Origin: Helicobacteraceae bacterium
Lineage (GTDB): Bacteria > Campylobacterota > Campylobacteria > Campylobacterales > Sulfurimonadaceae
NCBI GenBank assembly: GCA_015484575.1
Contig: WFND01000064.1
Coordinates: forward strand, 1 to 43,732
Reading direction: 5' to 3'
Length of the DNA: 43,732 bases
Both the position numbers and the translations under genes were made by a program. A model generated the notes under the pieces. It worked only from the letters and a program-made list of their open reading frames with translations. It ran no database searches and was not told where the DNA came from. Numbering within the stretch: the first letter of the stretch is position 1; each line of letters begins with the position of its first letter. Of the stretch, positions 2,047 through 41,600 are shown one piece after another.

Positions 2047-2072
2047 TTACATGTAAGGTCTCTTACATGTAA
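2047..2072 (+). terminator. Hairpin formed by two copies of TTACATGTAA (10-bp stem, 6-nt loop GGTCTC) 15 nt after the dnaK stop; possible terminator, no T-tract
   Basis: Copies at 2047-2056 and 2063-2072. The word is its own reverse complement, so the two copies pair perfectly. The downstream sequence CTAGGCAGATAG is not U-rich. Confidence 0.4.
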
Positions 2073-2206
2073 CTAGGCAGATAGATAAAAATAGATACAT
2101 ATATATGCTCTTATCAAAAGTACAACTATTATCTTATAATACATTCAAGATAAGGGAATTACAAGACGATTGGCCTCAACTAAAGTAGGGCCCTTATCAT
2201 TTACCT

Positions 2207-3541
2207 CTAAAATGGTTGTTTTACCATAACCCACATTGAAGAACCTTCATCTGAAAATGCCATATCAAATCGTAAAGGAACCTTGGCTGCTAAGGCACGA
2301 ATACTAAAACCTGCATCATATTTCATATCGTTTAAGAGTGTAGATATATTGTACTCCGGTGCAACACGTCCTGCTTCAGCAAAAATAACAGCTTGAAACC
2401 AGTCTATGGCTATCGGACTCCATTTTTGATTACGCATAGGATTGAAATTTGGGATAACTCTGTATTCTGTAGCAAAATAGAGTGCGGATTTATCGTTGAA
2501 ACGGTTAGAGTCATAGCCTCTCATTCTGTAAAAACCACCCAATCTAGCACCTTCAAACATAGGTGGTTGATGAGCATCGATTATAGAATTTGGATCATCA
2601 GGATTTAGCTTTTTTGACTTATCCCAAGAGGGAGAATATGCACTCCAAGTATTAAGAGCAATTACATTTTGCCTTGCCCAAGAAAATTTTGGCATCTCAA
2701 TATAGTGTGAGTATTGAGCCTCTATAGAGTTCCAACTTTGAGAGGAATTTGTCCAACCAAAGTCGATTGAAGTTTGTAGCTTCATGCTGTATCCGCGTGA
2801 GGGATTGTCTGGATAATCTGTATTATCATGTATAAAGAAAAAACGAAGACCATTTGTTCTAAATTCTGGTTTTTGAATCAGCTTATCCGCTGTCCATTTG
2901 GTATAAAAATACTCACTTCCAATAGTGCTTTGTCCGGTAATAAAAGGTATTCCTCCTCCTATCTTGTCTCTATTTACAGCTACTCCCCGTTTTAATTTTA
3001 TTGTGGGCAGAACGCTCTCTTTGCTCTCACCCCAAGGCAGTACATATCTAGCATCAAGTTTAAACCAGTTGTTAAACCCTTGTGTCTGAAAAGGGGTTGT
3101 CTCTTTTGGATTGTTTGAGTCAAGGTCTTGTTTTGATTGATGCGAACCATCTAAATATAGTCTCTGATTTGGATAGTAAGCATAAGAGCCTAAAAAACTG
3201 ATAAATGTACGTTTTGAAAAGTTAGGTCTATATCCATCAATGGCAAGTATAAAACCTTTTGCTCTTGAGTATTCAATATTGGTACTATCATCTGAATTTA
3301 ATTTTTCAACTTCTTGAGTTGAACCGATAAAAGCGGTGGCAACGATAGTCATTTGAGGTTGAATATAGCCACTAAATATTCCTACTGCACCTACTGTCAA
3401 ACCCATAGAATCTGTGCTGAAAATGTATGGAAGTGCAATCCAAGAGGAGTGCTTTTTAGAGCTGTTAACATCTTCTACGATAAATTCTGTTGCATTAAGA
3501 TTTACTACTATTAAAAGTAGAAAAATCGTTTTTTTTATCAT
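2207..3541 (-). CDS. Omp85/BamA-family (bacterial surface antigen D15 type) outer-membrane beta-barrel protein without a long POTRA region
   Basis: 444 aa with signal peptide MIKKTIFLLLIVVNLNA. C-terminal motifs GGFYRMRGY, ALYFATEYRV and a terminal ...MVKQPF (aromatic last residue) are typical of Omp85-type barrels. Confidence 0.7.
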   Translation of the reverse strand: MIKKTIFLLLIVVNLNATEFIVEDVNSSKKHSSWIALPYIFSTDSMGLTVGAVGIFSGYIQPQMTIVATAFIGSTQEVEKLNSDDSTNIEYSRAKGFILAIDGYRPNFSKRTFISFLGSYAYYPNQRLYLDGSHQSKQDLDSNNPKETTPFQTQGFNNWFKLDARYVLPWGESKESVLPTIKLKRGVAVNRDKIGGGIPFITGQSTIGSEYFYTKWTADKLIQKPEFRTNGLRFFFIHDNTDYPDNPSRGYSMKLQTSIDFGWTNSSQSWNSIEAQYSHYIEMPKFSWARQNVIALNTWSAYSPSWDKSKKLNPDDPNSIIDAHQPPMFEGARLGGFYRMRGYDSNRFNDKSALYFATEYRVIPNFNPMRNQKWSPIAIDWFQAVIFAEAGRVAPEYNISTLLNDMKYDAGFSIRALAAKVPLRFDMAFSDEGSSMWVMVKQPF

Positions 3542-5193: not shown

Positions 5194-5367
5194 TGTAGCA
5201 TTATTTTGCAACAAGTCTAATATACAGTAAAGTTCAAGTTTTTCTATACAATCATCAAGAAGTTTTAGTTTTAGTAGATACTCATCTAATGTTATATCAC
5301 CAGATGTGTATCTTAGGTAAAGTTTAAAACTTTTTACATGTAAGAGTTTTAATTTGCTTTGTGACAT
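5188..5367 (-). CDS. Possible 59-aa small protein (MSQSKLKLLHVKSFKLYLRYTSGDITLDEYLL...)
   Basis: Below the ORF-track cut-off and found by hand. Its ATG directly follows the stop of the upstream 35-codon ORF (TAAATG). The 3' end overlaps the convergent XRE gene by 6 nt. No homology recognised. Confidence 0.25.
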   Translation of the reverse strand: MSQSKLKLLHVKSFKLYLRYTSGDITLDEYLLKLKLLDDCIEKLELYCILDLLQNNATS

Positions 5368-9479: not shown

Positions 9480-10032
9480 CTGTACTGCCAAAGTTATACG
9501 TTAAACCAAATTTAAAAGAACGTTCATTTACTCTGTCTATAATATCTGTGTACGAACTATCTCTTTGCCAAAAAATCACACTTGTACTATAGTTACATGT
9601 AAGTGTTAAACTTTTTGACAGTTCAAAATTAAACCCTGCTTCAATTTCATTTATCCAACCAATTAAATCTCTCTGCTTTTCAAAAGAGATGCCAGAATCA
9701 TATGATAGAGCAGGGATAAGTGTAAAATATTCATTTTTAACTATAATATAATTTTCAAAATCATATTTATAGCCTAAGCTTGTAGATTGATAAGAGTCAC
9801 CACTGTCAAAATTGTTATACAGATATGATATACGTAAATTGTGACTATCTATTTTATATGATGTTATGACTTTTATAGATGGCTTAGAGGAGAGCTTTTT
9901 TTTTATATCTGCATTTTCTGCTACTAAAAGCTCCTCTGCATTTCCTGTTCCTATCTCTACTCCAAGTGAAAAATGATTTTCAGCTTGAAGAGATATTGCA
10001 AATACAGAGAGTAAAAGAAGTATATATCTCAT
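9472..10032 (-). CDS. Small outer-membrane beta-barrel protein (OmpW/OmpA-barrel-like, 8-strand size)
   Basis: 186 aa with signal peptide MRYILLLLSVFAISLQA. Alternating hydrophobic pattern and a near-terminal ...FKFGLTYNF motif. Start codon lies 1 nt after the cti stop. Confidence 0.6.
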   Translation of the reverse strand: MRYILLLLSVFAISLQAENHFSLGVEIGTGNAEELLVAENADIKKKLSSKPSIKVITSYKIDSHNLRISYLYNNFDSGDSYQSTSLGYKYDFENYIIVKNEYFTLIPALSYDSGISFEKQRDLIGWINEIEAGFNFELSKSLTLTCNYSTSVIFWQRDSSYTDIIDRVNERSFKFGLTYNFGSTDE

Positions 10033-10033: not shown

Positions 10034-12394
10034 TCACCACGGCTTATGATAGTAACGATTTAAATCAAACATACCTGAAGTTAAAGGTTCACTTTTATCA
10101 AAGTACTCTTGAAACCAGTCGTAAATTTTCCAGAAGTTTTTATCACTTCTTGAGATGGCAAATTTGTGAAAGATTTTATGATATTTATCGTTATCTTCAA
10201 AATTCATCAACATATTAAAAAATTCAGGAATATCTCTCTCTTTGACGATTAAAAAGAAATTTGGGTATGAGCCTACAGGTCCTATGTGAAAATCTGTAGT
10301 ATCTTTTGATGAGTCTAAGGTGCTGTCGGCTAAAAGAAGAGAGTTTACATTGTCGTGCCAACGATTAATAATCATACTCCCCATAATAACTCTCCCATCA
10401 TTCATATCAAGACGTATAAAGAGATTGTTTGCACTATAATCTACCACATGACGTATAAAACCGGTTCCCGGAGCAGTTAAGGCACGAAAACCGTTGCGAA
10501 TATCTTCATCTGTTTTAAACTCTTTTGGCATCTTAACTCTCTTAGCTCCCAATGCTACATAGTTGATATTGTCAAACTTTATGCCTGTTTTTTTTAAAAT
10601 ATGCTTATTTACAATATTTTCTATGAACTCTTGAGCGTAGTGTGTAGTGTTAAATTTAACTCCTGATGGACGTTTCCACATATCATCTTCATGTTTACTC
10701 TCTATCCAGCCGTCACCTTTATTCCAACTTTTAAACATCTTTAGCTGTACTTTTTTTGGCATATAAGATATGAAATTGAGTTCACCTTCAAAGCGTAAAA
10801 AATCCATATATCTTCTTACTTGCACCTGATGAGATACATTTCCATATACATCAAAACCGGCTACAAGATTGTAATATATTCTCTCCAAATGCGAATAGTC
10901 AATAACCCATATAGTACGAGGAAAAGAGCCTATGACGCCCTTGTGAACAGATGCAGAATCAAAATGTCTGTATATAGTAAGCAGTGGAGCATCTTCTGCA
11001 TTTTTACCTCTGTATATAGACTCAATTCCAAGACCGTTTGGATACATCTCATCTAAAATTTTCTCTTTAGTTTTAAAGTATGCCATATATCTATTTAGAT
11101 ATTCATCTGAAAAAGTACCCAAAACAGGAGCATCGCTGCCCATCTCTGTTGGTAGAGCCAGATTGCTTGACTCTTCTAGCAAGATACTTGGACGTTGAAC
11201 TCCCATATCATATTTTGGATCTTGAAACATAACCCAAAAATCATCATGTATAGCTGCTAGTGCAATCTGCCCACGACATACAGGACCACGTATAAAAGTC
11301 ATAACAATATAGTGTGCATTATCAAGCAGGTATTGATAACGTACCTTTGGAGGTATCTGTGCATAGGTTATAAATGGATTTGCGGAGCGTTTTTTGTCAT
11401 AACTGACTATATGAGGTTTTTCACTCCAAGGCGTGTCGATAAAGAGTTTTTTTACATTTTGCAGATATCTGTCATCTGTTTTTACAACCATATGCGTTTT
11501 ATGTACAATCGTAGAGTATATCTTCCTAAATCTATAGTAAAACTTATCTACCTTTGGGTCATCGTATGGTCTTACCGTCGGTATGATTTGTATCGGTTGC
11601 GGGGATGGTGTTTTTGAGCGTATAAGTTCAAAAAACTCTCTGTTATCATTTCCAAAATTTAGATGTGCAAGATATAGATGCTCATATAGATAACGTGCAC
11701 TCATTGCATGTTTTGCATCGGGAGTGTTTAAAAACTTTTCCCACTTTTGAATACTTTTTTGAGCTTCATGACTTGGTGTTTTATAAGCTTTTATCTGCTC
11801 TTTAGTTGGTCCTTTAGCTCCTTGTGCCAACCACTCTTTTAGAGTTTTAAACTCATCATCACTCATCTTTGAAAAACCGTAAGGCATACCGCGATGCTCT
11901 TTTTTTTCAAAATATTCGCCAACCTCTTCTTGGTTACGAGAGCAGATAAGATCTTCAGTCTCCGGGTTGTAGATGCCTTCTACTTTTGGATTATTAACTT
12001 TTTCTTGCAGGAGGTGCATCATGATAGAGTCGTTAAAACCGTTTTTGGCATGGTTGTCAACTACACTAAAAAAATCTTTTTTACGCCAATCCTCTTTGCT
12101 TTGTGCATCTATAAAAAGACGAGTTTGCTGTGCCGGAGTTATACGCTCTGCTTGATAAACAGCCTCTTTACTGGCACCACGCTCTAAACCGTCATATGAG
12201 CTAAGTTTTAGTTGGCAAGGTGCATTATAGCATGAGTGACATACAACACAGCGTTTGTCTAAAATAGGCTTTATATCTGTTAAATAATCTATCTTTTTAT
12301 GACTGTTTTGAACCTTTACAGGTGGAGGAGGTGCATAAGAACATCCTGTAATAATAAGCATAAACACGCTTACATGTAACAATATCTTTAACAT
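10034..12394 (-). CDS. cti: Fatty acid cis/trans isomerase (Cti), periplasmic heme-c enzyme
   Basis: 786 aa. The N-terminal CVVCHSCYNAPCQLKLSSYDGLERGASK contains the CXXCH heme site in the context characteristic of Pseudomonas/Vibrio Cti. Length also fits. Confidence 0.85.
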   Translation of the reverse strand: MLKILLHVSVFMLIITGCSYAPPPPVKVQNSHKKIDYLTDIKPILDKRCVVCHSCYNAPCQLKLSSYDGLERGASKEAVYQAERITPAQQTRLFIDAQSKEDWRKKDFFSVVDNHAKNGFNDSIMMHLLQEKVNNPKVEGIYNPETEDLICSRNQEEVGEYFEKKEHRGMPYGFSKMSDDEFKTLKEWLAQGAKGPTKEQIKAYKTPSHEAQKSIQKWEKFLNTPDAKHAMSARYLYEHLYLAHLNFGNDNREFFELIRSKTPSPQPIQIIPTVRPYDDPKVDKFYYRFRKIYSTIVHKTHMVVKTDDRYLQNVKKLFIDTPWSEKPHIVSYDKKRSANPFITYAQIPPKVRYQYLLDNAHYIVMTFIRGPVCRGQIALAAIHDDFWVMFQDPKYDMGVQRPSILLEESSNLALPTEMGSDAPVLGTFSDEYLNRYMAYFKTKEKILDEMYPNGLGIESIYRGKNAEDAPLLTIYRHFDSASVHKGVIGSFPRTIWVIDYSHLERIYYNLVAGFDVYGNVSHQVQVRRYMDFLRFEGELNFISYMPKKVQLKMFKSWNKGDGWIESKHEDDMWKRPSGVKFNTTHYAQEFIENIVNKHILKKTGIKFDNINYVALGAKRVKMPKEFKTDEDIRNGFRALTAPGTGFIRHVVDYSANNLFIRLDMNDGRVIMGSMIINRWHDNVNSLLLADSTLDSSKDTTDFHIGPVGSYPNFFLIVKERDIPEFFNMLMNFEDNDKYHKIFHKFAISRSDKNFWKIYDWFQEYFDKSEPLTSGMFDLNRYYHKPW

Positions 12395-12417
12395 TAAAAT
12401 CCTTTATATTCTCTCTG

Positions 12418-12960: not shown

Positions 12961-13034
12961 TTTTTCCCTTTTTATATAATAAATTCATATCTATTTTGGT
13001 ATTATAGTATAAAAATTTAATTTAGGTTTTCGTT

Positions 13035-16731: not shown

Positions 16732-17731
16732 TTTTTTAAAAAAAGCATCATATTTTCTTATATCTGTCTTTGTGATTTTATCTGGAATTTATATAGATTT
16801 ATCTCTATATTTTAGAGTTGAAAATCAGATATTATCAATTTTTTACATATCTCTTTTTTCATCTCTTAGTCTGTTTTTTATCTACTCTTTATGGATTAAA
16901 AAGTTTTATAAGTTTACGGCTGTTTTTTATCTTGTATCTGTTGTGATATGGATGTTTTGGTATGGGAGCATTAGAGCGTCAAATGATAGAAACTGGCAAA
17001 AAGATGTAGCTCTCTTGTCTTATGCAACCATAAACGGCAATCTTATAACAGTGCATAATATACGTAATTTTAAATATAAAAGTGAGTTTGATTACAGAGT
17101 CTCATATTATGATAAAACTTTCGATATTGACAGGTTAAAAGGGATAGATTTTATATCTACATACTGGATGGGACCTGACGTTGCACATACATTTTTAAGT
17201 TTTAGTTTTCAAAATAATCAACACCTAGCAATCTCAATAGAAGCACGAAAAGAGATAGGTGAATCATACTCCATGATTAGAGGTTTTTTTAAAGATAATG
17301 AACTCTATTATGTTGTTGCAGATGAGCGAGATTTGATAGGACTTCGCACAAATATACGAAAAAACCCACCCGAACATGTTTACATGTATGAGATAAATGC
17401 AGATATTAAAGATATGAAAAAAGTTTTTCTAAATTATATAAACAAGATAAATGAACTAAAAAAGAGACCCCAATTTTACGATACTTTGACGAGAAATTGC
17501 ACCACAAGTATATGGAACAATTCGCTTGTTCATAAATCTAATATGTCACTTACTTGGGAGATATTGCTTAGTGGACATACAGCATTTTATCTATATAAAA
17601 AAGGTTTACTGAAAACGTATGGTTTAAGCTTTGAAGAGTTGCAAAAGAGAGCCTATATTAATCCTTTAGTAGAACATAGCAAGATAGATGAGAATTACTC
17701 TAGCAGGATTAGAAAAAAACTACTTAAGTAG
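16724..17731 (+). CDS. DUF4105 (Lnb N-terminal periplasmic domain) membrane protein
   Basis: N-terminal TM helices. Pattern NIRNFKY ... HTFLSFSF ... SIEARKEIGESYS ... YVVADERDLIGLRT ... FYDTLTRNCTTSIW is typical of DUF4105. Overlaps the upstream stop by 8 nt. Confidence 0.7.
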   Translation: MINFLKKASYFLISVFVILSGIYIDLSLYFRVENQILSIFYISLFSSLSLFFIYSLWIKKFYKFTAVFYLVSVVIWMFWYGSIRASNDRNWQKDVALLSYATINGNLITVHNIRNFKYKSEFDYRVSYYDKTFDIDRLKGIDFISTYWMGPDVAHTFLSFSFQNNQHLAISIEARKEIGESYSMIRGFFKDNELYYVVADERDLIGLRTNIRKNPPEHVYMYEINADIKDMKKVFLNYINKINELKKRPQFYDTLTRNCTTSIWNNSLVHKSNMSLTWEILLSGHTAFYLYKKGLLKTYGLSFEELQKRAYINPLVEHSKIDENYSSRIRKKLLK

Positions 17732-24482: not shown

Positions 24483-25296
24483 GTATTCCATCAAGACAAA
24501 AAACTTCACCGTGATTTTGTTTTAACTTCATAAGCTCAAAATTTTTTCTGTGAGCCTCTCTTCTATCAGCTCTTGGATGGTTTAGATGGAGCAGATTTGC
24601 CGCATATTTGCAAGATCTGTTCTGTACGCCTATGGCATTTAATCTCCACTCTATATCTACATCATCAGCCACATCTCCGGAGGGGTATGACTCATCAAAA
24701 CCGTTTATTTTTAAAATATCTTCTTTATATACAGAAAAATTACAGCCGACAAGACGTCTTTTTTTATCTAAAATCTTTATGATAAAGTTGTAAAAAGCAG
24801 AAGCGGGATATAGAAACAGACCCTGCTCTATATGACGTGCTTTATCATCTTTCATCTGCCTGTAAAATGAGAAGAAATTCCTCTCTATCGTATTTACATG
24901 TAACTCTTCATTTCGTAATTTTTTGCTTAGTTTATCGCCTAGATTTACTCTGCGTCCACATAAAACAGTCTCTTTTTGCATAAGCTTTACATGAGCTTCA
25001 ACAAAGGTGCTGTAAGGCAGACAATCACCGTCAAAAAATATAAGATACTCTCCCTCACTCAATTTTATAGAACCATTTAGTGCTTTTGCTTTTCTCCAGC
25101 CTCTGTCTTTATGGTGATAATGTTTTATTTTGAAGTTAAATTTTGCAGATTTTATATATTTTGCTACCTCTGCATCTTCATCATCTTCAGCAACAATAAC
25201 TTCAAAATTTTTATATGTCTGCATATTTAAAGCGTTGAAGATAAGTTTTAAAGCCTGTAAATCTTTGTATGTAGGTACAATTACGCTTATTAACAT
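24466..25296 (-). CDS. Glycosyltransferase family 2
   Basis: The N-terminus [10 protein letters not shown] ... FEVIVAEDD ... FFDGDC has the GT-A/GT2 DXD pattern. Its 3' end overlaps the convergent UXS gene by 17 nt. Confidence 0.8.
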
Positions 25297-26396
25297 CAGA
25301 GAGTCTCTAATATTTTTGAGAGTTTTACAAACTGTTTTGTATCTGAAAATTTCTCTTGTGACTTCTTCATGCCTTTATGGGCTAGAGCCTCTCTTAGGGT
25401 GTCGTCACCGTATAGCTTTTTTATAGCACCAGCTAGTGAAGTGACACTTCCTTGTTCAAAAAGAAGACCATTAACCCCATCATCAATAATCTCAACAACA
25501 CCACCGCTATTTGAGCCTATAACCGCACTGCCAACCTGCATAGCCTCTATCAAAACAAGCCCAAAAGTTTCACGCTTTGAGGCTAAGACAACAACATCAG
25601 CCATCTGGTAAAAGTGGTGAGGGTTTTTCATAAAGCCTAGAAAATGAATACGACTGCTTACACTTAGCTCCTCAGCCATTTTCTTAAGAGAATCTACATA
25701 TCCTTTTTTCATCTCGTGACCTACAAAATAGGCGTGTACCGCACTATCTTCTATCTCTGCAATGGCCTTTATCAGTAAATGTTGTCCTTTTGCTTCATTT
25801 ATACGACCTACCATACCGACTACAAATTGATTATCCATGCCAAATTCTGTACGTTTTTTATCTATCTCTTTTACATGTAAGAGTTCAGGCTTATCCGAAC
25901 CCATATATAAAACTTCAATCTCCGGACGTATATCTTTAGGAATAAATTTCTCTAGCTGGGCTTTTACTTGATGAGTGACAGGCAGCATCAGGTCTATGTT
26001 TTTATATAAAAAACGGTGATAAAAATCATCTTTGAAGCGTGTCATTGTCATATTTCTAGTCTGCACAAGTTTAGGCTTGTGTGTAGATAATATCTTTGCT
26101 AATACGGCTATGGGAATATCTTTGCTCCAGTGAAGATGAAGTACATCTATCTTGTTTTTATCTATAATATCTGCCAACTTTTTAGCTGCTAAAAACATAA
26201 ATATATTTGATTTTTTCTCTATCATCTCATAAGCATATCTGCCATCTTTGTAGTATTGTTGCAGTTTTCCTTTTGAGTTTATTACACTTATTACATGTAA
26301 AGAGTCATCTAGTGCTTTTGCAGATCTAACCATATACAGCTCTAAGCCTCCCAAGTCCGGGGAAAGGCATAGCTCTAGTAGATTTTTTTTACTCAT
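25296..26396 (-). CDS. Glycosyltransferase family 4 (GT-B, group 1)
   Basis: 366 aa. The C-terminal half (VVLASKRETFGLVLIEAMQVGSAVIGSNSGGVVEII) carries the GT1/GT4 E-x7-E region. Confidence 0.8.
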   Translation of the reverse strand: MSKKNLLELCLSPDLGGLELYMVRSAKALDDSLHVISVINSKGKLQQYYKDGRYAYEMIEKKSNIFMFLAAKKLADIIDKNKIDVLHLHWSKDIPIAVLAKILSTHKPKLVQTRNMTMTRFKDDFYHRFLYKNIDLMLPVTHQVKAQLEKFIPKDIRPEIEVLYMGSDKPELLHVKEIDKKRTEFGMDNQFVVGMVGRINEAKGQHLLIKAIAEIEDSAVHAYFVGHEMKKGYVDSLKKMAEELSVSSRIHFLGFMKNPHHFYQMADVVVLASKRETFGLVLIEAMQVGSAVIGSNSGGVVEIIDDGVNGLLFEQGSVTSLAGAIKKLYGDDTLREALAHKGMKKSQEKFSDTKQFVKLSKILETL

Positions 26397-28225: not shown

Positions 28226-29373
28226 GAGTTGCCGTTATTGTAAAGAGTCTTAAAATCGGGGGAATGGAGAGAGCTGCCATAAATCTTGCAGAGACTTTTG
28301 CTCTTGAGGGGCATGAGAGCCATCTTATCTATTTTAAAGACAGAGACAAGGCGTTATCTGCAAATGATGATGTTCATACACACCTTTTTAATATTGAGAA
28401 GATACTAAAAAAGAGCGGTATCGGACTGATATTAAATCTATTTGCCAAAATATTAAACGGCATTATCAGGCACAGCTATTTTTACTCTCAGGGAATACTG
28501 CTAACTCCTATCTTTAGATGGAAGATGAACGCTTTGGAGAAAGAGTTTGGTAAGTTTGACCTTATCTTGATTCGTGGGCAGGGTACTTTTGAGATGATAT
28601 GGAGATACAACAGAGCTGAACTTGTGATTCAGCAGGTCAATATCTTAAGAGAGTATGATACATTTTTTAGTGATTTTTTTAGAAGAGCAATCTTTTCTCA
28701 TAAACAGATAATCTGTAACGCTCCTAGTGTAAAAAGAGAGATAGAGTCTGGATTTAAAGCAAGTGCGGTTGAACCGAAAAGTTTACATGTAATACCAAGC
28801 CCTATAAATGTAAAACTGATTCAACAACGCTCAAATGCCTATAAAACAGAGTTTAATGAAAAATATATTATAAATATAGGACGTTTTGCACCCGTTAAAA
28901 ATATCTCTCTGCTCATAAAGTCTTTCGCTTATGCAAGAGAAAATTTTAATCTAAAACATAAGCTTGTTTTAGTGGGTGATGGTGGACTTAAAAAGAGTCT
29001 TCAAGAGTTGGCTGAAAGTTTACATGTAAGCGATAGCGTCCATTTTACAGGAGCTTTAAACAACCCATATCCATGGTTGAAAGATGCCGAGTTATTTGTG
29101 TTTACCTCAAAAAACGAAGGTCTGCCAAATGTTCTTCTTGAGTCACTATCATGCGAAACAGATATAATCTCCACCCGTGGAAAAGGTGGAACTATGGATA
29201 TTATGTCAGGTGATTTGGCTGAGTATCTTATGGATTTTGATGTTAAAGAGATAGCTAAAAAGATAGTTGATGTCTTAGCAGATACAAAGAAGTTAGAACA
29301 TCATAAATACCTAAAAATATATACTCCGTCTTTTGTTGTTCAAGAGTATAAAAATCTCTATGTAGATAAGTGA
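28222..29373 (+). CDS. Glycosyltransferase family 4 (GT-B, group 1)
   Basis: 383 aa. Contains GRFAPVKNISLLIKSF, LVGDG and FVFTSKNEGLPNVLLESL. Overlaps the upstream stop as ATGA. Confidence 0.8.
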   Translation: MRVAVIVKSLKIGGMERAAINLAETFALEGHESHLIYFKDRDKALSANDDVHTHLFNIEKILKKSGIGLILNLFAKILNGIIRHSYFYSQGILLTPIFRWKMNALEKEFGKFDLILIRGQGTFEMIWRYNRAELVIQQVNILREYDTFFSDFFRRAIFSHKQIICNAPSVKREIESGFKASAVEPKSLHVIPSPINVKLIQQRSNAYKTEFNEKYIINIGRFAPVKNISLLIKSFAYARENFNLKHKLVLVGDGGLKKSLQELAESLHVSDSVHFTGALNNPYPWLKDAELFVFTSKNEGLPNVLLESLSCETDIISTRGKGGTMDIMSGDLAEYLMDFDVKEIAKKIVDVLADTKKLEHHKYLKIYTPSFVVQEYKNLYVDK

Positions 29374-30761: not shown

Positions 30762-30769
30762 GTATTTTT

Positions 30770-31681
30770 ATGAGTTATAAGAAATTTTCATATATAGTTT
30801 TGATATTTGCCTCTGCTCTTTTTGTGATAGCAGGATTTTTACACTCACTACATCTCGTATATAATGAAAACGATAGAATTTTAGCCTATCAAGAGCATAA
30901 ATTACAAAAATTAACCAAGATAGAGACTCTTATAGTCGGTGACAGCTCTGCAGGAAACGCTATAGATGCAAAATATTTCTCTAAGCTATCTCATAGCAAA
31001 ACACTCAATGTTGCACTTACCGGAAGTTATGGAATTATAGGCTCACTAAATATGCTAAAAAGAGTTGCAAAAGAGCATAAAGAGCTTAAAAATGTCATTA
31101 TTATGCAGAGCCTTGATGTCTGGTATAGACCTCTTAATCTAACAAGTTATTTTAAAACACGCTCTACACCTCTTAGCGAGATGAGTGGCGTTATAGACAG
31201 TCTCTACTCAAAATATTTCGCATTTTTATTTAATATAAAAGAGATAAACTGGTTTATAAAGTACCTGTATGAAGATAAAGATAGCACTATAGATATAAAA
31301 CATGACTATACAAAACAGAAAAAATATACTTTTGCCAATGGGAAAAAGAGGTTAAAAGAGGGTGTTGGACTCAAAGATAAGATAGATAAAGATAAGCTAA
31401 AAATTTTATCTCTGATGGATAACTTTTGCGGAGAGAAAAAACTGCAATGCTCATATCTGCATGGAGCTTTACATGTAAGCTTGGTAAAAAAAGATAAAAA
31501 GATAATAGAGCATATAAACACAGAGCTTTCAAATGTGATGAAAAATATATACTTTGTTCCAAAACCACTAGCCATACAGCAGAGATACATGGGTGATTCA
31601 AATGACCATGTTGATGTCTCATATAAGCTTCAAAGTACAAAAGAGAGCTACAATAGAATAAAGGAAAATCTTGAGTTATAA
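30770..31681 (+). CDS. Membrane-anchored partner of the MBOAT enzyme, possible SGNH/DltD-like acyl-transfer protein
   Basis: 303 aa with an N-terminal TM anchor. The GDS block (LIVGDSSAGNAID) sits where SGNH block I is expected. Its position directly after the MBOAT gene matches AlgI-AlgJ and DltB-DltD logic. Confidence 0.4.
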   Translation: MSYKKFSYIVLIFASALFVIAGFLHSLHLVYNENDRILAYQEHKLQKLTKIETLIVGDSSAGNAIDAKYFSKLSHSKTLNVALTGSYGIIGSLNMLKRVAKEHKELKNVIIMQSLDVWYRPLNLTSYFKTRSTPLSEMSGVIDSLYSKYFAFLFNIKEINWFIKYLYEDKDSTIDIKHDYTKQKKYTFANGKKRLKEGVGLKDKIDKDKLKILSLMDNFCGEKKLQCSYLHGALHVSLVKKDKKIIEHINTELSNVMKNIYFVPKPLAIQQRYMGDSNDHVDVSYKLQSTKESYNRIKENLEL

Positions 31682-32417
31682 GTACAGTTTAAACGATAAA
31701 TATCTACATTTCAAAGATGCTCTGTTAGATGTAAAGAGATATTTTGATGCTTCAGATGAGAGTATTCATAAAGCGAGAAATGAGCTTCGTATCTCCGAGA
31801 TAGAGAGTGAAAAAGTTGTTATAAAAGCTTTTAAAGTGCCTCATCTTATAAATCAGTTCGCATATGCCTACCTTCGTGATGGAAAAGCTCGTAAATCTTA
31901 CGATAATGCTATAAAGCTTCAAGCCTTACATGTAAACACTCCTACACCTATAGGTTTAATTGAATTTTACCGTTTTGGACTCTTAAAACAGAGCTACTTT
32001 ATTGCTAAATATGAAGCGTATGATTTTACGATACGTGAAGCTTTTCATAGAAAAATAGAAGATTACAAAGAGGTTATAAAGGCTTTTGCACTCTTTACTT
32101 ATGACTTACATGTAAAGGGTGTTTGGCATGTTGATTACTCACCGGGAAATATCTTAATAAGCAGAAAAAACGGCTCTTATCACTTCTCTTTGGTAGATAT
32201 TAATCGTATGGAGTTTAGAGATATTGGAGAGTATGAAGGTCTGGAAAACTTTGCAAAATTTTGGGCAAAAGAGGAGGATTTAAAACTACTAGCAACAAGT
32301 TACGCAGAGGTTGCGTCACTAGATGTCGATAAAGCTATACAGAGAGCTTCTGATGCAGCAAAAAAACTTCAAGCCAAAACAGAGTTAAAAAGAAAACTAA
32401 AAGGTGCTAATTTTTAA
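31671..32417 (+). CDS. Lipopolysaccharide kinase (Kdo/WaaP/InaA family)
   Basis: TTG start with AAGGA 5 nt upstream. The protein-kinase-like catalytic loop WHVDYSPGNILI ... LVDINRM is typical of the LPS/Kdo kinase family. Confidence 0.6.
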   Translation: MSYKYSLNDKYLHFKDALLDVKRYFDASDESIHKARNELRISEIESEKVVIKAFKVPHLINQFAYAYLRDGKARKSYDNAIKLQALHVNTPTPIGLIEFYRFGLLKQSYFIAKYEAYDFTIREAFHRKIEDYKEVIKAFALFTYDLHVKGVWHVDYSPGNILISRKNGSYHFSLVDINRMEFRDIGEYEGLENFAKFWAKEEDLKLLATSYAEVASLDVDKAIQRASDAAKKLQAKTELKRKLKGANF

Positions 32418-32432
32418 ACTTTTGTTATCAAA

Positions 32433-32989: not shown

Positions 32990-33099
32990 AATGTCTCCTT
33001 GTAATATATCAGTGGGATGTGTATAGCTAAATCATACCAAAATTATAGCATATACTCAAAATTATGGAGCTATGGATTTATGGTGCATAAGGTCAGTTA

Positions 33100-34680
33100 C
33101 TAATTTTTTGGTATCTCCAAAAAACCTGCCAAGCCAGATATATCTCCGCCACATACATAACATGGTCTTTGCGGGTGTAATTTACTTGTATCGTATCCTA
33201 AAAGTTGGGCAACTATTTTTGACATCTCAAAGTGAGAGATAAACTCTTCATCCGGCATTTTAGGTATCTCTTTTTTATTTACATGTAAAGCATATATGAA
33301 AAATGGTACTTTATGCTGCTCTTTAAACTCTATGTGACCGTGTCCATAACGTCCATCTTGACCGACACTCTCTCCATGATCTGCAGTAAATATAATATAT
33401 GTGGGTTTTTTTGAGCTGTTTTGAAGATATGTAATGATTTTTTTTATAACATCATCCGTATATAACACGCTGTTTTCATACGCACTTCGCTTCTCGTCTG
33501 TATCTTTAAACTTCTCATATCTACTTGGGTATCTCTGAGCATAAGGTGAGTGTGAGCCTACCTGATGAAGTACAATGAAATTAGAGATATTCAGATTAAC
33601 GCTTTTTAATTTCTCAAGTAACTTCTCATCGCTGTCTGTGTGGTGAATATCTGCAGCTGAACTACTGCCGTCAAGATAACTGTCTATCCATCTAGTGCAT
33701 AGATAACTCTTTATATTGCTAAGTGCGTCTTGCGATTGAGAGCTAAAAAAATGGGTGCTAAAACCGCTGTTTTTTGCCATCTTAAACAGACATGTATTTG
33801 TGCTTATTATCTGTGGCAGTCCGTTAGGACGATATATCATATTAAAGAAAGAGGGAAGTGAGACATCTGTATATACACCAGAGGAGATTCCTTTTTTATA
33901 TATAAAATTTGGACTCTTTTTCAGGGAGTTTAAAAATGGAGTCGTATCTTTTTTATACCCATAAAGTGACATAAAGTTTCTATTTAGAGATTCTCCCATG
34001 ATAAGTACAATATTTGCATCTATATCTCTTTTTAACAGAGGCAGTGGCTCTATTATCTTTTGAGATAGAGTAGTATCTTCATGCAATATCATTTTTATAG
34101 CTAAACTGCCTCCTAAATAACCGAGAGTCTCTATGGCATTTCTTAGTGGATTTACCTCTACATTTGGACGAGCTCCTTTATCTGAGTTATTAATCCAAAC
34201 TCTACCGGGAATAAATATAACAAGAGCCAACCACACATAGCCCAAATAGGGGATAATAAAACGTTTTTGAGGCAATTTTTTTAAAATATAGATACCCGAG
34301 ACAATAGATACTATGATAATGATAAAAGGCACAATCATCATATTTAAAACTTTAGAAAATGTCTCAAATGTATCATAAAATTTAGTAAAAAATAGTATAA
34401 ATTCAAGAGGAAATATCCAAGAACCATAGTAGTTAAAGTGTAAAAGTTCTGCTGAAATTAAGATAGATATAAGAGTGTATATACCAAAAATCACTCCTCG
34501 TTTTGATAGAGAAAGTATAAGAAAGTTTATTAAAATTAGTTCGCCAAAAGTATTTAGGGTGAGATTAAAGTTTAAGATAGGGTTGTATATACGATAACTC
34601 TGCTCTAAGAGTATAAAAATCAGAGTCATACCTAAAGAGAGCAAAAGAGTATGAAAAAAAGCTCTTAGTTTATCTCTCAT
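33100..34680 (-). CDS. Phosphoethanolamine transferase (EptA/EptC/CptA family)
   Basis: 526 aa with an N-terminal TM bundle plus a sulfatase domain. Contains IMGESLNRNFMSLYGYKKDTTPFL, HQVGSHSPYAQRYPSRYEKF, YENSVLYTDDVI and TADHGES. Confidence 0.85.
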   Translation of the reverse strand: MRDKLRAFFHTLLLSLGMTLIFILLEQSYRIYNPILNFNLTLNTFGELILINFLILSLSKRGVIFGIYTLISILISAELLHFNYYGSWIFPLEFILFFTKFYDTFETFSKVLNMMIVPFIIIIVSIVSGIYILKKLPQKRFIIPYLGYVWLALVIFIPGRVWINNSDKGARPNVEVNPLRNAIETLGYLGGSLAIKMILHEDTTLSQKIIEPLPLLKRDIDANIVLIMGESLNRNFMSLYGYKKDTTPFLNSLKKSPNFIYKKGISSGVYTDVSLPSFFNMIYRPNGLPQIISTNTCLFKMAKNSGFSTHFFSSQSQDALSNIKSYLCTRWIDSYLDGSSSAADIHHTDSDEKLLEKLKSVNLNISNFIVLHQVGSHSPYAQRYPSRYEKFKDTDEKRSAYENSVLYTDDVIKKIITYLQNSSKKPTYIIFTADHGESVGQDGRYGHGHIEFKEQHKVPFFIYALHVNKKEIPKMPDEEFISHFEMSKIVAQLLGYDTSKLHPQRPCYVCGGDISGLAGFLEIPKN

Positions 34681-34681
34681 A

Positions 34682-35605
34682 TTAAGCGATAATCTCTCGT
34701 AATTTCTGCTTTACATGTAAGAGTGTATCTTGACGTTTTTTAATATCTTGGCTTAACATAAAAGGGTGTTGAATACTCTCATCACTTACGGCTTTCCATC
34801 TCTTAACAGAGGCAAAAAGCGAGTCTGCAAAAAATGTCATCGTTTCGGTACCGACTAAAGCTGCTAGATGATAAGTCCCCGTAGAGGTACTTACAAAAAG
34901 TTTCAGGGTACTTAAAAATTTGCCAAAAGCTACCAATCCATCTTTTGAGATATAAAACTCTATCTCCGTATTTAGCTTTTTTGCCTCTTGTAAAAATGTA
35001 TTATCAGTAGGACCAAAAGTCATTACAGGGGTATATCGACTCTCATTTTTAACTATCTGTGCTAGTTCAAAATACTCTTTTATAGTTAAATTTGCATCAC
35101 TAGAACCACCAAAGCCCACATGAAAAGCGATAATATCCTCTTTTTTACTATCAAAGCCTAAAAGAGGTTGAGGATATGAGCTGTTTATATCTGTAAAATA
35201 GCTTTTGACAAGTGCTATATTGTACTCATACTCTGCCATTTTTACACGTGAACGTCTCTGTTTGACTCTCTTATTGTAAAAAATCTGTGCTACCTTTGTT
35301 GCAGGTGCTACACGCAGAGAAATACGAGCCAAAAACTGTGCTAGAGCCACTTTTGTATCTGAAAACAGAGTGAAAGATATGTCAAAATTGTATGGTTTTA
35401 GCTTTTTTGCAAGTTCTAAAGCGTTTTTAGTATCATCAACAATAACATCATCTATAAAATCACATCTGTTTGCCAACTCCTCATTTAACGAAGATATGCA
35501 GACGGTAATCTTAAATTTTGGATTATACTGTTTTAAAATTTTACATGTAGGAAGAGCAGTGATAAAATCACCGAGCTTATCTGTACGCACTATCAAGATA
35601 TTCAT
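34682..35605 (-). CDS. Glycosyltransferase family 9 (LPS heptosyltransferase-like)
   Basis: MNILIVRTDKLGDFI is the typical GT9 N-terminus, so the ATG at 35605 is preferred over the TTG at 35620. The C-terminal STSTGTYHLAA motif also fits. Confidence 0.7.
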   Translation of the reverse strand: MNILIVRTDKLGDFITALPTCKILKQYNPKFKITVCISSLNEELANRCDFIDDVIVDDTKNALELAKKLKPYNFDISFTLFSDTKVALAQFLARISLRVAPATKVAQIFYNKRVKQRRSRVKMAEYEYNIALVKSYFTDINSSYPQPLLGFDSKKEDIIAFHVGFGGSSDANLTIKEYFELAQIVKNESRYTPVMTFGPTDNTFLQEAKKLNTEIEFYISKDGLVAFGKFLSTLKLFVSTSTGTYHLAALVGTETMTFFADSLFASVKRWKAVSDESIQHPFMLSQDIKKRQDTLLHVKQKLREIIA

Positions 35606-35626
35606 ACGCAAGTATAACAAATTGTA

Positions 35627-35657
35627 TTTACATGTAAGATAAACTCTTACATGTAAA
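35627..35657 (-). terminator. Hairpin formed by two TTACATGTAA copies (11-bp stem, 9-nt loop) 9 nt after the ahpC stop; possible terminator
   Basis: Copies at 35628-35637 and 35647-35656, with T35627/A35657 extending the stem. Only a weakly T-rich tail follows on the minus strand. Confidence 0.4.
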
Positions 35658-39293: not shown

Positions 39294-39690
39294 GCGTAGA
39301 GCAATAGATTTTCATCTCGATATTGCTCCTGTAAATCTTATCGATCTTCTTTTGGTATTGCTTATCTTTTTTGTAACTACTACTTCATTTTTACAGCTTC
39401 AGGTGATAGATCTCACCTTGCCAAAAACAGATGCAAGTAAAAAAATTCAACCAAAAGCCGATAAACATTCAATAAATATCGACCTTACATGTAACACATA
39501 CCTAGATAAGAAGATGTTAAGTTTAGATGAGTTGAAAACTGAATTGATAAGTATAAAAAAAATGGGTAAAAAATCATACTTTCGCGTAGGGGCAGACGCT
39601 TCATCTCCTCATGAATGTTTTGTAAAGGTTTTAAACGTTTTACAAAAGGCAGATATAACAGATATACAGATATTAACAAAATTAAAATAG
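39283..39690 (+). CDS. exbD: ExbD/TolR-family biopolymer transport protein
   Basis: Start moved to the ATG at 39283 (MRRKRRAIDFHLDIAPVNLIDLLLVLLIFF), overlapping exbB by 11 nt. The ORF-track start at 39181 lies inside exbB. Confidence 0.8.
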   Translation: MRRKRRAIDFHLDIAPVNLIDLLLVLLIFFVTTTSFLQLQVIDLTLPKTDASKKIQPKADKHSINIDLTCNTYLDKKMLSLDELKTELISIKKMGKKSYFRVGADASSPHECFVKVLNVLQKADITDIQILTKLK

Positions 39691-39698
39691 GTACTTAA

Positions 39699-41600
39699 AT
39701 GCAATATCATACTAAAGCACTCTTTGTTTACGATAATGAAGCACTAGATTGGATTGAACTTGTCAAAAATAGTGACTTACATGTAAAGATAACAAGTTGC
39801 AATATCGAACTTTTTTTACAAGAGCCTCTAAAATATATAAATGAGGGCGAACATCTTATAATTGCTGCAGATACGCAAGAGATAGAGAAATGTTTACATG
39901 TAGCTATAAAACATAGTTTATCTATCGGTTTTTTACCATTTGCACGTCAAAAACAGCTGATACGTCACTACTGTTTATCATCAAATCTACAAAGTAATCT
40001 AAATATTGCTCTTTTACAGAGTGATAACAGTGTAGATTTAATCGAGTGTGGCGATAAGATAATGCAGGTAAAAGCGACGTTTGGCGAGATTCCTTTGGTT
40101 AGTAATATCTCATATAAAAATGGTTTTTTTGCATTTATAGAGAATTTAAAGCGTGGGATAAAAGAGTTTTTTAAAATAACTATGCAAGAGGTTAGTATAA
40201 CTACTGAAAATGATAAAAAGATAAAAACCGTAGTAAGCGGTGGCTCTTTGGTTCAATCATCATACAAGGGCTTCTTCTCAAGAGTCTCAGGTGTCAAACA
40301 CTCTGTAAGAGATTCTCAGGTTAAAATGATTTTAGTATCTCCTTTCTCAGTTATAGAGTATATGAAATTTCTATTTTCAGTAATCTCTTTTTCTAAAAAT
40401 AGTTCAAATTTATCAAATGCTGTAGGTCTAATAAAATCAAAATCAGTTACTATCGAGACTAAACGTTCTAAAAGATTACATATCGACGATAGTTTCCATG
40501 TCTATCTGCCTGTTACATGTAAGATTATCGATTCTGCCGTTAAAGTCAGTGCACCAGAAGAGTTTTGGGAGGCAAATCCAAGTTCGGATCAAAATAAGGA
40601 GTCCATTAAGACAGATAACCTTCCCGATGAAAAAGAGAGTGAAAGATATAGAGATAAGCATATCCCATTTTTTTCATACGCCTCTGAAGAACACTTTAGG
40701 GAGCTGTTTTCTGCTCTGCGAGATGATGCAAATATGCACTCTATATATGTTGTGCTGATGTTACTTAGCACCCTTTTAGCGACTATAGGTCTCTTTGCAA
40801 ACTCTATAGCCGTAGTTATCGGTGCTATGCTTTTAGCTCCTTTGATGGCACCTATCGTATCTCTGTCTATGGGACTATTAAGAGCAGATACCAAACTTTT
40901 AAATGCCTCTTTGATTAAAATATCATGGGGAGTTCTTTTAGCTCTCGGTGCTTCGGCTCTGGTTACATATATTTTGCCAAGCATGGATCTGACTTCTGAG
41001 ATGAAAGCTCGTATAAACCCGACTGTTCTTGATTTGGGAGTGGCTATCATATCCGGCATAGCAGCAGCTTATTCAAAATCTTTTAAAGAGATTATTCAAT
41101 CATTGGCAGGTGTTGCTATCGCTGTGGCACTGGTTCCTCCGCTCTCTACTGCAGGAATTGGTTTGGGCAAGGGTGATATGCTTGTATTTTTACAGGCATT
41201 TTTACTATTTTTTACAAATCTGATAGGCATAACTCTCTCTGCTACTTTAACATTTTTTGTATTGGGATACTCAAGCGTTTTAAAGAGTAAAAAAAGTCTA
41301 ATGCTCATTATGTTAATAATGATATTTATCTCTTTTCCTCTATATACATCATTTCACAAAATAGTTGAAAAAGAGCAGGTATCAAAAGCTACAAGATATG
41401 AGCGTTTTTTAATAAATGGAAAATATATTATCGTAAACAGTGCGACACTTAGATATACAGAAGGAAAAGATGTTTTAGATATTGGATTAAAGGTGCGTGA
41501 GGGGCTAAATCGTAATGATTTATACAAGCTAAAGAGAGAAATTGAGAAAAACTACAAACGTCAACTACGAATAAATGCAAGTGTGGAGTATATATTATGA
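39699..41600 (+). CDS. Fusion protein: degenerate diacylglycerol-kinase-like (DAGK/NAD-kinase fold) N-terminal domain plus a DUF389/TIGR00341 membrane domain
   Basis: The C-terminal half (LLSTLLATIGLFANSIAVVIGAMLLAPLMAPI, AGVAIAVALVPPLSTAGIGLG) matches the DUF389 pattern. The N-terminal ~290 aa align by eye to the YegS/DAGK layout, but with AADTQ in place of GGDGT. Confidence 0.6.
   Translation: MQYHTKALFVYDNEALDWIELVKNSDLHVKITSCNIELFLQEPLKYINEGEHLIIAADTQEIEKCLHVAIKHSLSIGFLPFARQKQLIRHYCLSSNLQSNLNIALLQSDNSVDLIECGDKIMQVKATFGEIPLVSNISYKNGFFAFIENLKRGIKEFFKITMQEVSITTENDKKIKTVVSGGSLVQSSYKGFFSRVSGVKHSVRDSQVKMILVSPFSVIEYMKFLFSVISFSKNSSNLSNAVGLIKSKSVTIETKRSKRLHIDDSFHVYLPVTCKIIDSAVKVSAPEEFWEANPSSDQNKESIKTDNLPDEKESERYRDKHIPFFSYASEEHFRELFSALRDDANMHSIYVVLMLLSTLLATIGLFANSIAVVIGAMLLAPLMAPIVSLSMGLLRADTKLLNASLIKISWGVLLALGASALVTYILPSMDLTSEMKARINPTVLDLGVAIISGIAAAYSKSFKEIIQSLAGVAIAVALVPPLSTAGIGLGKGDMLVFLQAFLLFFTNLIGITLSATLTFFVLGYSSVLKSKKSLMLIMLIMIFISFPLYTSFHKIVEKEQVSKATRYERFLINGKYIIVNSATLRYTEGKDVLDIGLKVREGLNRNDLYKLKREIEKNYKRQLRINASVEYIL

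Follow-up and report, generated by a model that had tools for sequence, protein, structure and literature searches.

A highly iterated palindrome in a subset of uncultured Sulfurimonadaceae, possibly a tag of self-DNA

The stretch of DNA studied here, 43.7 kb of contig WFND01000064.1 (hereafter the window), is ordinary chromosome of an uncultured member of the Sulfurimonadaceae (Campylobacterota). We found that the 10-bp palindrome TTACATGTAA occurs in it in 26 exact copies, about 0.6 per kb, and that its enrichment recurs in more than 15 independent assemblies, which come from different studies. We describe TTACATGTAA as a lineage-specific "highly iterated palindrome" that occurs genome-wide in a subset of the uncultured Sulfurimonadaceae. 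The mechanism that we favour, at a probability of roughly 0.4, is a self-DNA tag that would be read during uptake or recombination, possibly depending on methylation. Hyper-abundant genome words are rare and informative: the DNA uptake sequences (DUS) and uptake signal sequences (USS) revealed sequence-specific DNA uptake, and the cyanobacterial palindrome HIP1, a 30-year puzzle of cyanobacterial genomics, is only now being tied to transformation. TTACATGTAA adds a second highly iterated palindrome, unrelated to HIP1 and from another phylum.

Abundance and location of the palindrome in the window

A preliminary description, made from the letters of the window alone, had listed the starts of 26 exact copies, and all of them were reproduced. 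In 100 dinucleotide-preserving shuffles of the window TTACATGTAA appeared 0.13 times on average and never more than once, and Markov models of order 1 to 3 gave 0.10-0.13. The enrichment of about 200-fold agrees with the two orders of magnitude that had been estimated by hand. Among all 10-mers of the window TTACATGTAA ranked first, and its inner octamer TACATGTA was the top-ranked 8-mer, above the A/T runs. There were 36 ACATGT hexamers, 26 of them within TTACATGTAA and 31 within TACATGTA; these counts match the approximate ones given before and support the view that selection is on the long word, not on the hexamer. The flanks extend the symmetry as had been noted, with a pyrimidine at -1 in 23 of the 26 copies and a purine at +1 in 20. 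Six copies differ from TTACATGTAA by one mismatch, four of them at an outer position only. The five that had been recorded earlier are all present, and a sixth, at 31725, had been overlooked. Furthermore, 21 exact copies do lie in 14 unrelated genes on both strands, as the preliminary description said, and the other five are intergenic.

TTACATGTAA is its own reverse complement, and because it is a palindrome its orientation is trivially symmetric. It has no asymmetry and no strand bias, which sets it apart from oriented words of the Chi type and of the FtsK-orienting polar sequence (KOPS) type. The copies and variants are given below without strand; LHV stands for the Leu-His-Val reading frame, and (+) or (-) is the strand of the gene.

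Exact copies
2047..2056: intergenic; left arm of a hairpin pair starting 16 nt past the dnaK stop codon
2063..2072: intergenic; right arm of the dnaK-distal hairpin pair, 6-nt spacer
5334..5343: intergenic; 141 nt past the stop of the helix-turn-helix gene 4270-5193; apex of a longer hairpin, AAAACUUUUUACAUGUAAGAGUUUU
9593..9602: outer-membrane beta-barrel protein gene 9472-10032(-); frame xTT-ACA-TGT-AAx (Leu-Thr-Cys-Asn)
12370..12379: 5' end of the fatty-acid cis/trans isomerase gene 10034-12394(-); LHV
18241..18250: msbA 17720-19417(-); LHV; kept at the aligned position in L009
19712..19721: LtaS/sulfatase-family gene 19431-21419(-); LHV; kept at the aligned position in L009; LKP (Leu-Lys-Pro) in many homologues
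20135..20144: same LtaS-like gene, 19431-21419(-); LHV
20609..20618: same LtaS-like gene, 19431-21419(-); LHV
21389..21398: same LtaS-like gene, 19431-21419(-), N-terminus; LHV
23407..23416: second sulfatase-family gene 21508-23550(+); LHV
24894..24903: GT2 glycosyltransferase gene 24466-25296(-); LHV
25871..25880: GT4 glycosyltransferase gene 25296-26396(-); LHV
26291..26300: GT4 glycosyltransferase gene 25296-26396(-); LHV
28783..28792: GT4 glycosyltransferase gene 28222-29373(+); LHV
29020..29029: GT4 glycosyltransferase gene 28222-29373(+); LHV
31469..31478: gene 30770-31681(+); LHV
31926..31935: Kdo/WaaP-like kinase gene 31671-32417(+); LHV
32106..32115: Kdo/WaaP-like kinase gene 31671-32417(+); LHV
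33279..33288: EptA-like phosphoethanolamine transferase gene 33100-34680(-); LHV
34711..34720: heptosyltransferase-like gene 34682-35620(-); LHV
35628..35637: intergenic; one arm of a hairpin pair directly downstream of the ahpC(-) stop codon
35647..35656: intergenic; other arm of the ahpC-distal pair, 9-nt spacer
39485..39494: open reading frame (ORF) 39181-39690(+); Thr-Cys frame
39777..39786: gene 39699-41600(+); LHV
40513..40522: gene 39699-41600(+); Thr-Cys frame

One-mismatch copies
17380..17389: octamer kept, outer position changed; TTACATGTAT
35541..35550: octamer kept, outer position changed; TTACATGTAG
39894..39903: octamer kept, outer position changed; TTACATGTAG
43321..43330: octamer kept, outer position changed; ATACATGTAA
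start 31725: the overlooked copy; TTAGATGTAA
start 42552: recorded earlier and present

The genes of the window are dnaK, those of an Omp85-family protein, a fatty-acid cis/trans isomerase and a GGDEF-EAL protein, msbA, two LtaS/sulfatase-family genes, several glycosyltransferase genes, an EptA-like transferase gene, ahpC, and the genes of pyruvate kinase (pyk) and TonB, among others; Rfam and tRNA scans of the window found no RNA family and no tRNA. The copies are unevenly spread. Between 18.2 and 35.7 kb (18241-35656), from msbA through the lipopolysaccharide (LPS) core cluster, 20 of the 26 were counted (the lines above give 18 starts there), with a density of 1.1 per kb versus 0.23 per kb elsewhere in the window. 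The G+C content is flat (0.31-0.37) despite this unevenness. The clustering could be caused by the tolerance of the proteins or by frequent exchange of the region. dnaK and pyk hold no copy.

Occurrence in related genomes

For comparison 81 loci were fetched, including the 80 nearest dnaK loci of species-representative genomes, all of them metagenome-assembled genomes (MAGs) of Sulfurimonadaceae or Campylobacterales, which agrees with the phylum Campylobacterota that the preliminary description had supposed. The best DnaK identity among these 80 was 94%, and the DnaK of L001, an ENA metagenome scaffold, was identical to that of the window. The word was carried by L001-L010, L036, L037, L040 and L060 at 0.1-0.5 copies per kb, in DNA of 33-53% G+C; two additional carrier loci had 29.5% and 48% G+C. 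Carrier MAGs include GCA_054013295.1, GCA_050304715.1 and the assemblies with the prefixes CAMZLS01, JAYEGP01, JBNKJB01, JAFGUB01, CAITKP01, JAVHOA01, JAHJGM01 and JALSLQ01. Pooled, the carriers held 88 copies of TTACATGTAA in 260 kb versus 0.48 expected, and 128 copies of the octamer versus 4.3 expected (about 30-fold). The same enrichment as in the window is therefore present in independent related assemblies, at a frequency far above expectation. "Genome-wide" refers in this study to about 17 loci from different assemblies, the carriers being uncultured MAGs. If densities of 0.34-0.6 copies per kb hold throughout a genome of 2-2.5 Mb, about 700-1,500 copies are estimated. The enrichment is independent of base composition, as carriers span 30-53% G+C; for example, L010 has 53% G+C, yet 10 copies in 20 kb.

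Not all relatives share the word. The comparison with sister species proposed in the preliminary description showed enrichment in the carriers, whereas about 65 other Sulfurimonas and Sulfuricurvum loci (1.07 Mb) held no copy of TTACATGTAA. In a DnaK tree (single-gene neighbour-joining, no support values) the carriers fell into at least three groups, and the non-carriers L011 and L014 were nested among carriers; assemblies of nested non-carriers include JADGEC01 and CAZYEW01. This patchiness argues for repeated loss or horizontal gain of whatever maintains TTACATGTAA. The sole strongly enriched palindromic octamer in the 81 loci was TACATGTA.

Accessory genes have the word as well. In the 48% G+C carrier locus L262, a type II CRISPR-Cas system (16287-20873; cas9 with an HNH domain, cas1, cas2) adjoins msbA and PAP2 genes, and three copies of TTACATGTAA lie in cas9 and one in cas1. 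Three more were found in a type IIG restriction-modification (R-M) gene on a carrier contig. Its distribution thus extends beyond ancient core genes.

Selection on the DNA word rather than on the proteins

The coding copies are strongly biased in frame. In the window 18 of the 21 are read as TTA-CAT-GTA (Leu-His-Val) and three as xTT-ACA-TGT-AAx (Thr-Cys); the third reading frame includes the stop codon TAA. The same bias was seen in the relatives, with 42 copies in the LHV frame and 15 in the Thr-Cys frame; the other 31 were intergenic or at the ends of genes. No tripeptide is more common in the proteins of the window than Leu-His-Val (21 occurrences versus 1.7 expected from composition, about 12-fold), and 18 of these 21 are encoded by exactly TTACATGTAA, one codon triplet of 48 possible. 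The preliminary description had proposed a codon-shuffled expectation. When synonymous codons were shuffled within each gene, 1.6 +/- 1.1 copies were expected (maximum 6) versus the 21 observed.

Orthologues point the same way. In the 841-residue protein encoded upstream of dnaK, carriers have L-H-V or T-C at the columns of the word, and non-carriers have a hydrophobic-variable-hydrophobic pattern, for example IDL, VNL or LVV. Among 120 homologues of the LtaS-like protein, LHV is nearly confined to the closest relatives; at one site LKP is found in 59 of the 120, and LHV in carriers. These alignments suggest that TTACATGTAA is placed at poorly conserved residues, as DUS and USS are. Taken together, the codon-shuffle null, the orthologue columns and the inflation of LHV indicate that the DNA word overrides protein sequence: TTACATGTAA is maintained as DNA, at a cost to the proteins that contain it. 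Uptake sequences also distort proteins, but more mildly, with a tripeptide inflation of about 2-fold (PMC2817400).

Conservation of sites between carriers

Sites are shared between carriers of no more than 52-70% DNA identity, as the following comparisons show.

Window versus L009: DNA identity 67%; 2 of 4 window sites and both L009 sites shared; background of identical 10-mers 2.0%
L001 versus L004: DNA identity 70%; 2 of 2 and 2 of 3 sites shared; background of identical 10-mers 3.6%
L001 versus L036: DNA identity 54%; 1 of 1 site shared; background of identical 10-mers 0.36%

Sharing thus exceeds the background rate of identical 10-mers by 25-100 times. Protein alignments of the carriers contain shared word columns, and also gains and losses of sites.

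The recognised unit

One-off variants delimit the unit. In the pooled carriers they were enriched solely at positions 1 and 10 (30 copies, 8-31 times expectation). At the inner eight positions there were 8 variants altogether, no more than expected. The octamer TACATGTA is the specific unit, and the outer T/A alone tolerates variation. Information in the flanks is short: position -1 is a pyrimidine in 85% of copies, -2 and -3 are C in 41% and 36%, and there is none farther out. With this weak extension the whole unit is the compact symmetric site (c)(c)Y-T-TACATGTA-A-R(g)(g). In L036 half of the half-sites have C at the outer position, favouring CTACATGTAG; the numbers are small, and this may possibly be a dialect.

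The palindrome does not behave as a restriction target, since the octamer is about 30-fold enriched and not avoided. It is no miniature inverted-repeat transposable element (MITE), repetitive extragenic palindrome (REP) or other dispersed repeat either: flank information ends at -3 and 81% of copies are inside genes. The exclusion of MITE/REP elements, protein repeats and CRISPR arrays in the preliminary description is upheld by this absence of longer flanks and by the 14 unrelated genes. A transcription-factor regulon or operator was rejected as well, as 21 of the 26 copies are coding and the intergenic ones lie downstream of genes.

Shorter words were assessed against a second-order expectation in which reading frame is ignored, and codon usage partly shapes the ACATGT and CATG counts. 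Outside the octamer ACATGT reached 0.37-0.42 of expectation in carriers and non-carriers alike, which fits the earlier remark that restriction targets are avoided. Half-site variants [ACG]ACATGTA in carriers numbered 6 versus 23 expected, and the transition variants TTATATGTAA and TTGCATGTAA each occurred twice versus 1.8 and 1.3 expected (small numbers). GGCC (0.47-0.61), CTAG (0.55-0.60), GATC (about 0.72-0.75) and CATG (about 0.7) were also under-represented in carriers and non-carriers. Restriction pressure or codon effects could underlie this family-wide depletion of ACATGT, GGCC, CTAG, GATC and CATG.

Intergenic copies and hairpins

Non-coding DNA makes up roughly 5% of the window but holds five of the 26 copies, an enrichment of about 4-fold. 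Four of these five form two close pairs, the dnaK-distal one with a spacer of 6 (fold -15.3 kcal/mol, z -3.3) and the ahpC-distal one with a spacer of 9 (-15.3 kcal/mol, z -5.3), and each pair forms a 10-13 bp hairpin right after the stop codon. The copy at 5334 caps a longer hairpin (-11.1 kcal/mol, z -1.8). The place after dnaK is occupied by a pair or a single copy in L001, L002, L004, L006, L010, L040 and L060; the single copies are joined to a G+C-rich stem, and the surrounding sequence differs between carriers. Close pairs in carriers have variable spacing. The likeness to DUS and USS that the preliminary description saw in the density and in the hairpin pairs is borne out by the pairs behind dnaK and ahpC and by their recurrence in relatives.

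The dnaK stop codon itself lies within a 12-bp stem-loop (GATGCTGAAATCGAATAGATTTCAGCATC) at 2014-2042 of the window, and the first copy of the word follows directly. With the pair at 2047/2063 the 3' end of dnaK therefore has two consecutive hairpins.

Relation to known genome words

By sequence and by phylum TTACATGTAA is a member of neither the HIP1 nor the DUS/USS group. Full-text literature searches returned neither the 10-mer nor the octamer in the context of a bacterial genome, and no uptake sequence or iterated palindrome described for Sulfurimonas or Campylobacterota, in line with the earlier statement that none is described in this phylum.

The cyanobacterial HIP1 (GCGATCGC) appears to be the closest known analogue. 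It occurs at 300-2700 copies per Mb with observed-to-expected (O/E) ratios of 15-300, conserved sites and end-biased variants (PMC4390886, PMC5861425). TTACATGTAA too is a short exact palindrome, with a core of 8 bp and often a symmetric extension to 10 bp, and its density (340-600 per Mb) and O/E (about 180-200) are within the HIP1 ranges. Coding and non-coding copies, conserved sites, end-position variants and patchy relatives are further points in common. However, HIP1 belongs to Cyanobacteria and the HIPs have a GATC/CGATCG core or a GC-rich alternate, whereas TTACATGTAA is found in Campylobacterota and is unrelated, A+T-rich and built on a CATG core. Because of this host and this sequence it is HIP-like in behaviour but not HIP1. 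HIPs are accompanied by cognate orphan methyltransferases, whereas for TTACATGTAA none was found in the window or in a screen of about 600 kb; the single-frame bias and 12-fold tripeptide inflation of TTACATGTAA are apparently unreported for HIP1. Transformation is up to 100 times higher with methylated HIP1 (bioRxiv 10.1101/2024.09.10.611283). In a phylogenetic analysis, the abundance of HIP1 was correlated with proteins of type IV secretion systems, interpreted by the authors as machinery for DNA uptake (bioRxiv 10.64898/2026.06.24.733823).

Similar density, O/E, frame bias and tripeptide inflation have been described for DUS and USS (PMC2817400), and pairs of USS occur in terminators (PMC5217627). 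The DUS of Neisseriaceae (GCCGTCTGAA and dialects) and the USS of Pasteurellaceae (AAGTGCGGT core) are words of 9-12 bp that occur about 0.5-1 times per kb, 100-1000 times as often as expected; TTACATGTAA has 0.6 copies per kb in the window and 0.1-0.5 in relatives. They resemble TTACATGTAA in being lineage-specific with dialect-like variation (as L036 with CTACATGTAG), in frame bias, tripeptide inflation and preference for poorly conserved residues, and in the intergenic excess with close hairpin-forming pairs after genes. In contrast, DUS and USS are asymmetric and TTACATGTAA is a perfect palindrome; its tripeptide inflation is about 12-fold rather than about 2-fold; and uptake bias, competence and a receptor (ComP in Neisseria) have been demonstrated there, whereas TTACATGTAA is known from sequence alone. 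A third relevant system belongs to the same phylum. In C. jejuni (CtsM, RA(m6)ATTY) uptake is restricted to DNA with the methylated palindrome RAATTY (PMC10046745), so that Campylobacterota can gate uptake by a short, symmetric, methylated word. RAATTY differs in being a degenerate 6-mer, common by composition and not reported to be hyper-abundant, whereas TTACATGTAA is a 10-mer amplified about 200-fold.

Words read by chromosome-maintenance proteins are also distributed genome-wide. The known Chi and KOPS words are asymmetric, 5-8 nt long and oriented with replication, unlike TTACATGTAA. The second group, matS, parS and the binding sites of SlmA and Noc (SBS, NBS), is palindromic as TTACATGTAA is; these occur in tens per genome, not about 1,000, and are not known to reshape the proteome.

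What may maintain the palindrome

A self-DNA tag would work as follows. A symmetric, presumably dimeric, protein would read the word in natural transformation, at DNA uptake and/or in the following recombination step, and might need methylation at the central CATG. Fragments with the word would enter and replace resident alleles more often, and mutations that create or perfect copies would therefore spread by molecular drive. Within genes such copies would settle where Leu-His-Val or Thr-Cys is acceptable to the protein, and in intergenic DNA without this restriction; pairs there may double as transcript-end hairpins. In the theory developed for USS, more than 1,000 sites with a cost to proteins are more easily kept by drive than by selection on each site. 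The uptake sequence proposed in the preliminary description would agree with all of the observations. The tag is favoured because the phenotype matches that of uptake sequences and about 1,000 costly sites suit drive, and because methylated HIP1 boosts transformation, HIP1 abundance is correlated with type IV secretion system proteins, and C. jejuni gates uptake on methylated RAATTY. The preliminary description had treated an uptake sequence and an orphan-methylase word as opposing explanations; methylated RAATTY and methylated HIP1 suggest that they are not exclusive. A broader proposal, to which we give slightly less credence than to the tag itself, is that TTACATGTAA would be the first uptake or recombination signal of Campylobacterota, as well as the first such signal that is a palindrome, and would be recognised as a symmetric tag in methylated form. 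With HIP1 and RAATTY it would then suggest that methylated palindromic self-tags gating transformation have evolved repeatedly and can be amplified by drive to the point of visibly reshaping the proteome.

Several points weigh against a self-DNA tag. Neither a methyltransferase nor a competence gene nor a candidate receptor lies in the window. Crude screening of about 600 kb of carrier DNA for motifs gave a single type IIG enzyme (Eco57I/MmeI-type), whose gene has three copies of the word, and the two extra carrier loci contained no candidate determinant. All carriers are uncultured MAGs. The known DUS and USS are non-palindromic, whereas TTACATGTAA is a palindrome. The intergenic hairpins are without clear U-tracts, and a terminator role is for this reason not established. 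Sister lineages showed no alternative hyper-abundant word among palindromic octamers in the 81 loci sampled, so that under an uptake model the specificity must have been gained or lost several times. Finally, site conservation and frame bias are equally expected if the reader is a nucleoid protein or a repair system.

Repair is indeed the basis of one alternative, which we consider unlikely. As in Elhai's model for HIP1, an orphan methyltransferase would mark CATG, ACATGT or TACATGTA, very-short-patch (VSP) or methyl-directed repair would convert near-cognates, and the word would accumulate as a by-product or tool without any role in uptake. CATG is a common methyltransferase target in Campylobacterota, and the word is palindromic and built round CATG. 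It occurs in all kinds of resident DNA, including cas9 and the R-M gene, the half-site variants [ACG]ACATGTA are depleted, and one-off variants are confined to the first and last positions as in HIP1 (PMC4390886). However, an enrichment of about 200-fold with a specificity of 8-10 bp is difficult to reconcile with the known VSP effects, which are far smaller and concern about 5 bp. The transition variants that repair could correct are not depleted in the small numbers available, replacements of several nucleotides such as LKP to LHV exceed single-mismatch correction, and neither the window nor the 600-kb screen, apart from its type IIG enzyme, contained a methyltransferase or Vsr-like gene. 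Somewhat less probable again is a binding site of an abundant dimeric chromosome-organising or nucleoid-associated protein, a dense analogue of the SlmA, Noc or MatP sites in which selection for chromosome structure or segregation would preserve every copy. A dimeric reader would be expected to have a strict palindrome, positions are conserved between species, and close pairs have variable spacing. Readers of the palindrome appear to exist, given the phage- or plasmid-like contigs with phased or gene-proximal arrays described below, and a nucleoid role has been proposed for HIP1 (PMC5861425). But the estimated sites number at least 1,000, mostly genic and at the cost of rare His and Cys residues, which leaves very weak selection per site, and the patchiness among close relatives would be odd for a core chromosome function. 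SlmA-, Noc- and MatP-type systems have tens of sites per genome.

We regard as improbable that the word is a self-marker read by a nuclease, either a Chi-like signal taming AddAB/RecBCD or a signal that spares DNA from defence, whereby phage and foreign DNA without the word would be degraded and DNA with it repaired or recombined. Such a marker would be genome-wide, lineage-specific and enriched in all resident genes including accessory ones, as observed, and a Chi-like role has been raised for HIP1 (bioRxiv 10.1101/2024.09.10.611283). Nevertheless, a palindrome cannot carry polarity and ten base pairs are long for Chi. No carrier phage was found in which mimicry of the word could be checked (three spacers of the L006 CRISPR array had no match in IMG/VR), and the viral contigs that bear the word use clustered, intergenic, operator-like sites not tied to carriers. 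Practically no weight is given to the view that nothing special is present, that is, to chance or composition, to a preference for certain codons or peptides, to a dispersed mobile element or to an artefact of assembly. The ACATGT and CATG statistics are partly shaped by codons and the simple Markov model ignores reading frame, which speaks for caution. However, shuffling gave 0.13 (dinucleotide) and 1.6 (codon) copies versus 26 and 21, and the word recurs in more than 15 independent assemblies of 30-53% G+C with no conserved flank beyond 3 nt. LHV falls on one of 48 codon triplets in 18 of 21 cases, and intergenic and Thr-Cys copies exist besides. The shuffles, independent assemblies, flanks and codon usage rule this reading out.

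Carriers and non-carriers among close relatives, at 30-53% G+C, form a natural comparison set in which the genes that track the word should name its reader or writer; this would test an uptake tag versus a repair product versus a nucleoid site. The word is also a clear case of DNA overriding protein, with LHV as the commonest tripeptide and conserved residues replaced, and it could be used as a marker for binning the lineage in metagenomes. If the self-DNA tag is true, it could help to make vent and sediment Sulfurimonadaceae genetically tractable.

Other occurrences of the palindrome and minor observations

Paired copies were sought in viral contigs, and 59 contigs were found, with copies mostly clustered, intergenic and in longer conserved flanks; one of them also carries HIP1. 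These contigs look like unrelated operator or promoter uses and are uninformative about phages of carriers. A phage with terminase and portal genes has ATCTTACATGTAAGATA upstream of genes. In two IMG/VR loci of phage with terminase and portal (L113:7576-11552 and L128:602-2840; 47% G+C), a 16-17 bp palindrome ATCTTACATGTAAGAT(A) occurs in 5-7 copies, all intergenic and several just upstream of ribosome-binding sites. It looks like a phage promoter or operator sharing the same 10-bp core.

A metagenome scan returned many contigs with host-like densities of 0.5-1.5 copies per kb, few of them tied taxonomically to Sulfurimonadaceae. These contigs are a mixed set: L149 and L260 have tandem repeats, L163 has an iteron-like array phased at 21 bp, and L246 is AT-rich with copies that are mainly intergenic. 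The tandem repeats with the 10-mer (L149:2396-2899, 38-bp period; L260:5206-5434, 21/30-bp periods) are unrelated to the dispersed copies and inflate the raw metagenome counts. In L163:746-1027 (Ga0210384_10477721) six (A/T)TTACATGTAA(A/T) sites are spaced by 21, 42, 63, 125 and 21 bp, distances near multiples of two helical turns, with degenerate copies between them. The arrangement resembles the iterons or a centromere-like array of a plasmid or phage.

Apparent enriched 9-mers of other kinds were discarded. The one in L006, a 50% G+C carrier MAG, comes from a CRISPR array at 12283-13199, some 400 bp downstream of dnaK. The array has 14 or more repeats (GTTTTAAGACCCCTGCAAACCCCTTTGCGTTAAAAT) at a period of 66 bp, and three of its spacers had no exact match in IMG/VR. 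The other, YAAACGCAGC, is a modest one-strand word of two sister Sulfurimonas MAGs without the palindrome (L065 and L072; 6-7 copies in 18-22 kb) and is absent from the window. All its copies except one are on the same strand, mostly at syntenic positions, and it may be a skewed Chi/KOPS-like word.

In the window itself, a toxin-antitoxin-like pair without any copy of TTACATGTAA lies within the LPS gene cluster (32433-32989, minus strand). It consists of a 113-aa DUF5615 (PIN-like) protein and an overlapping 74-aa ORF that looks like a DUF433 antitoxin.

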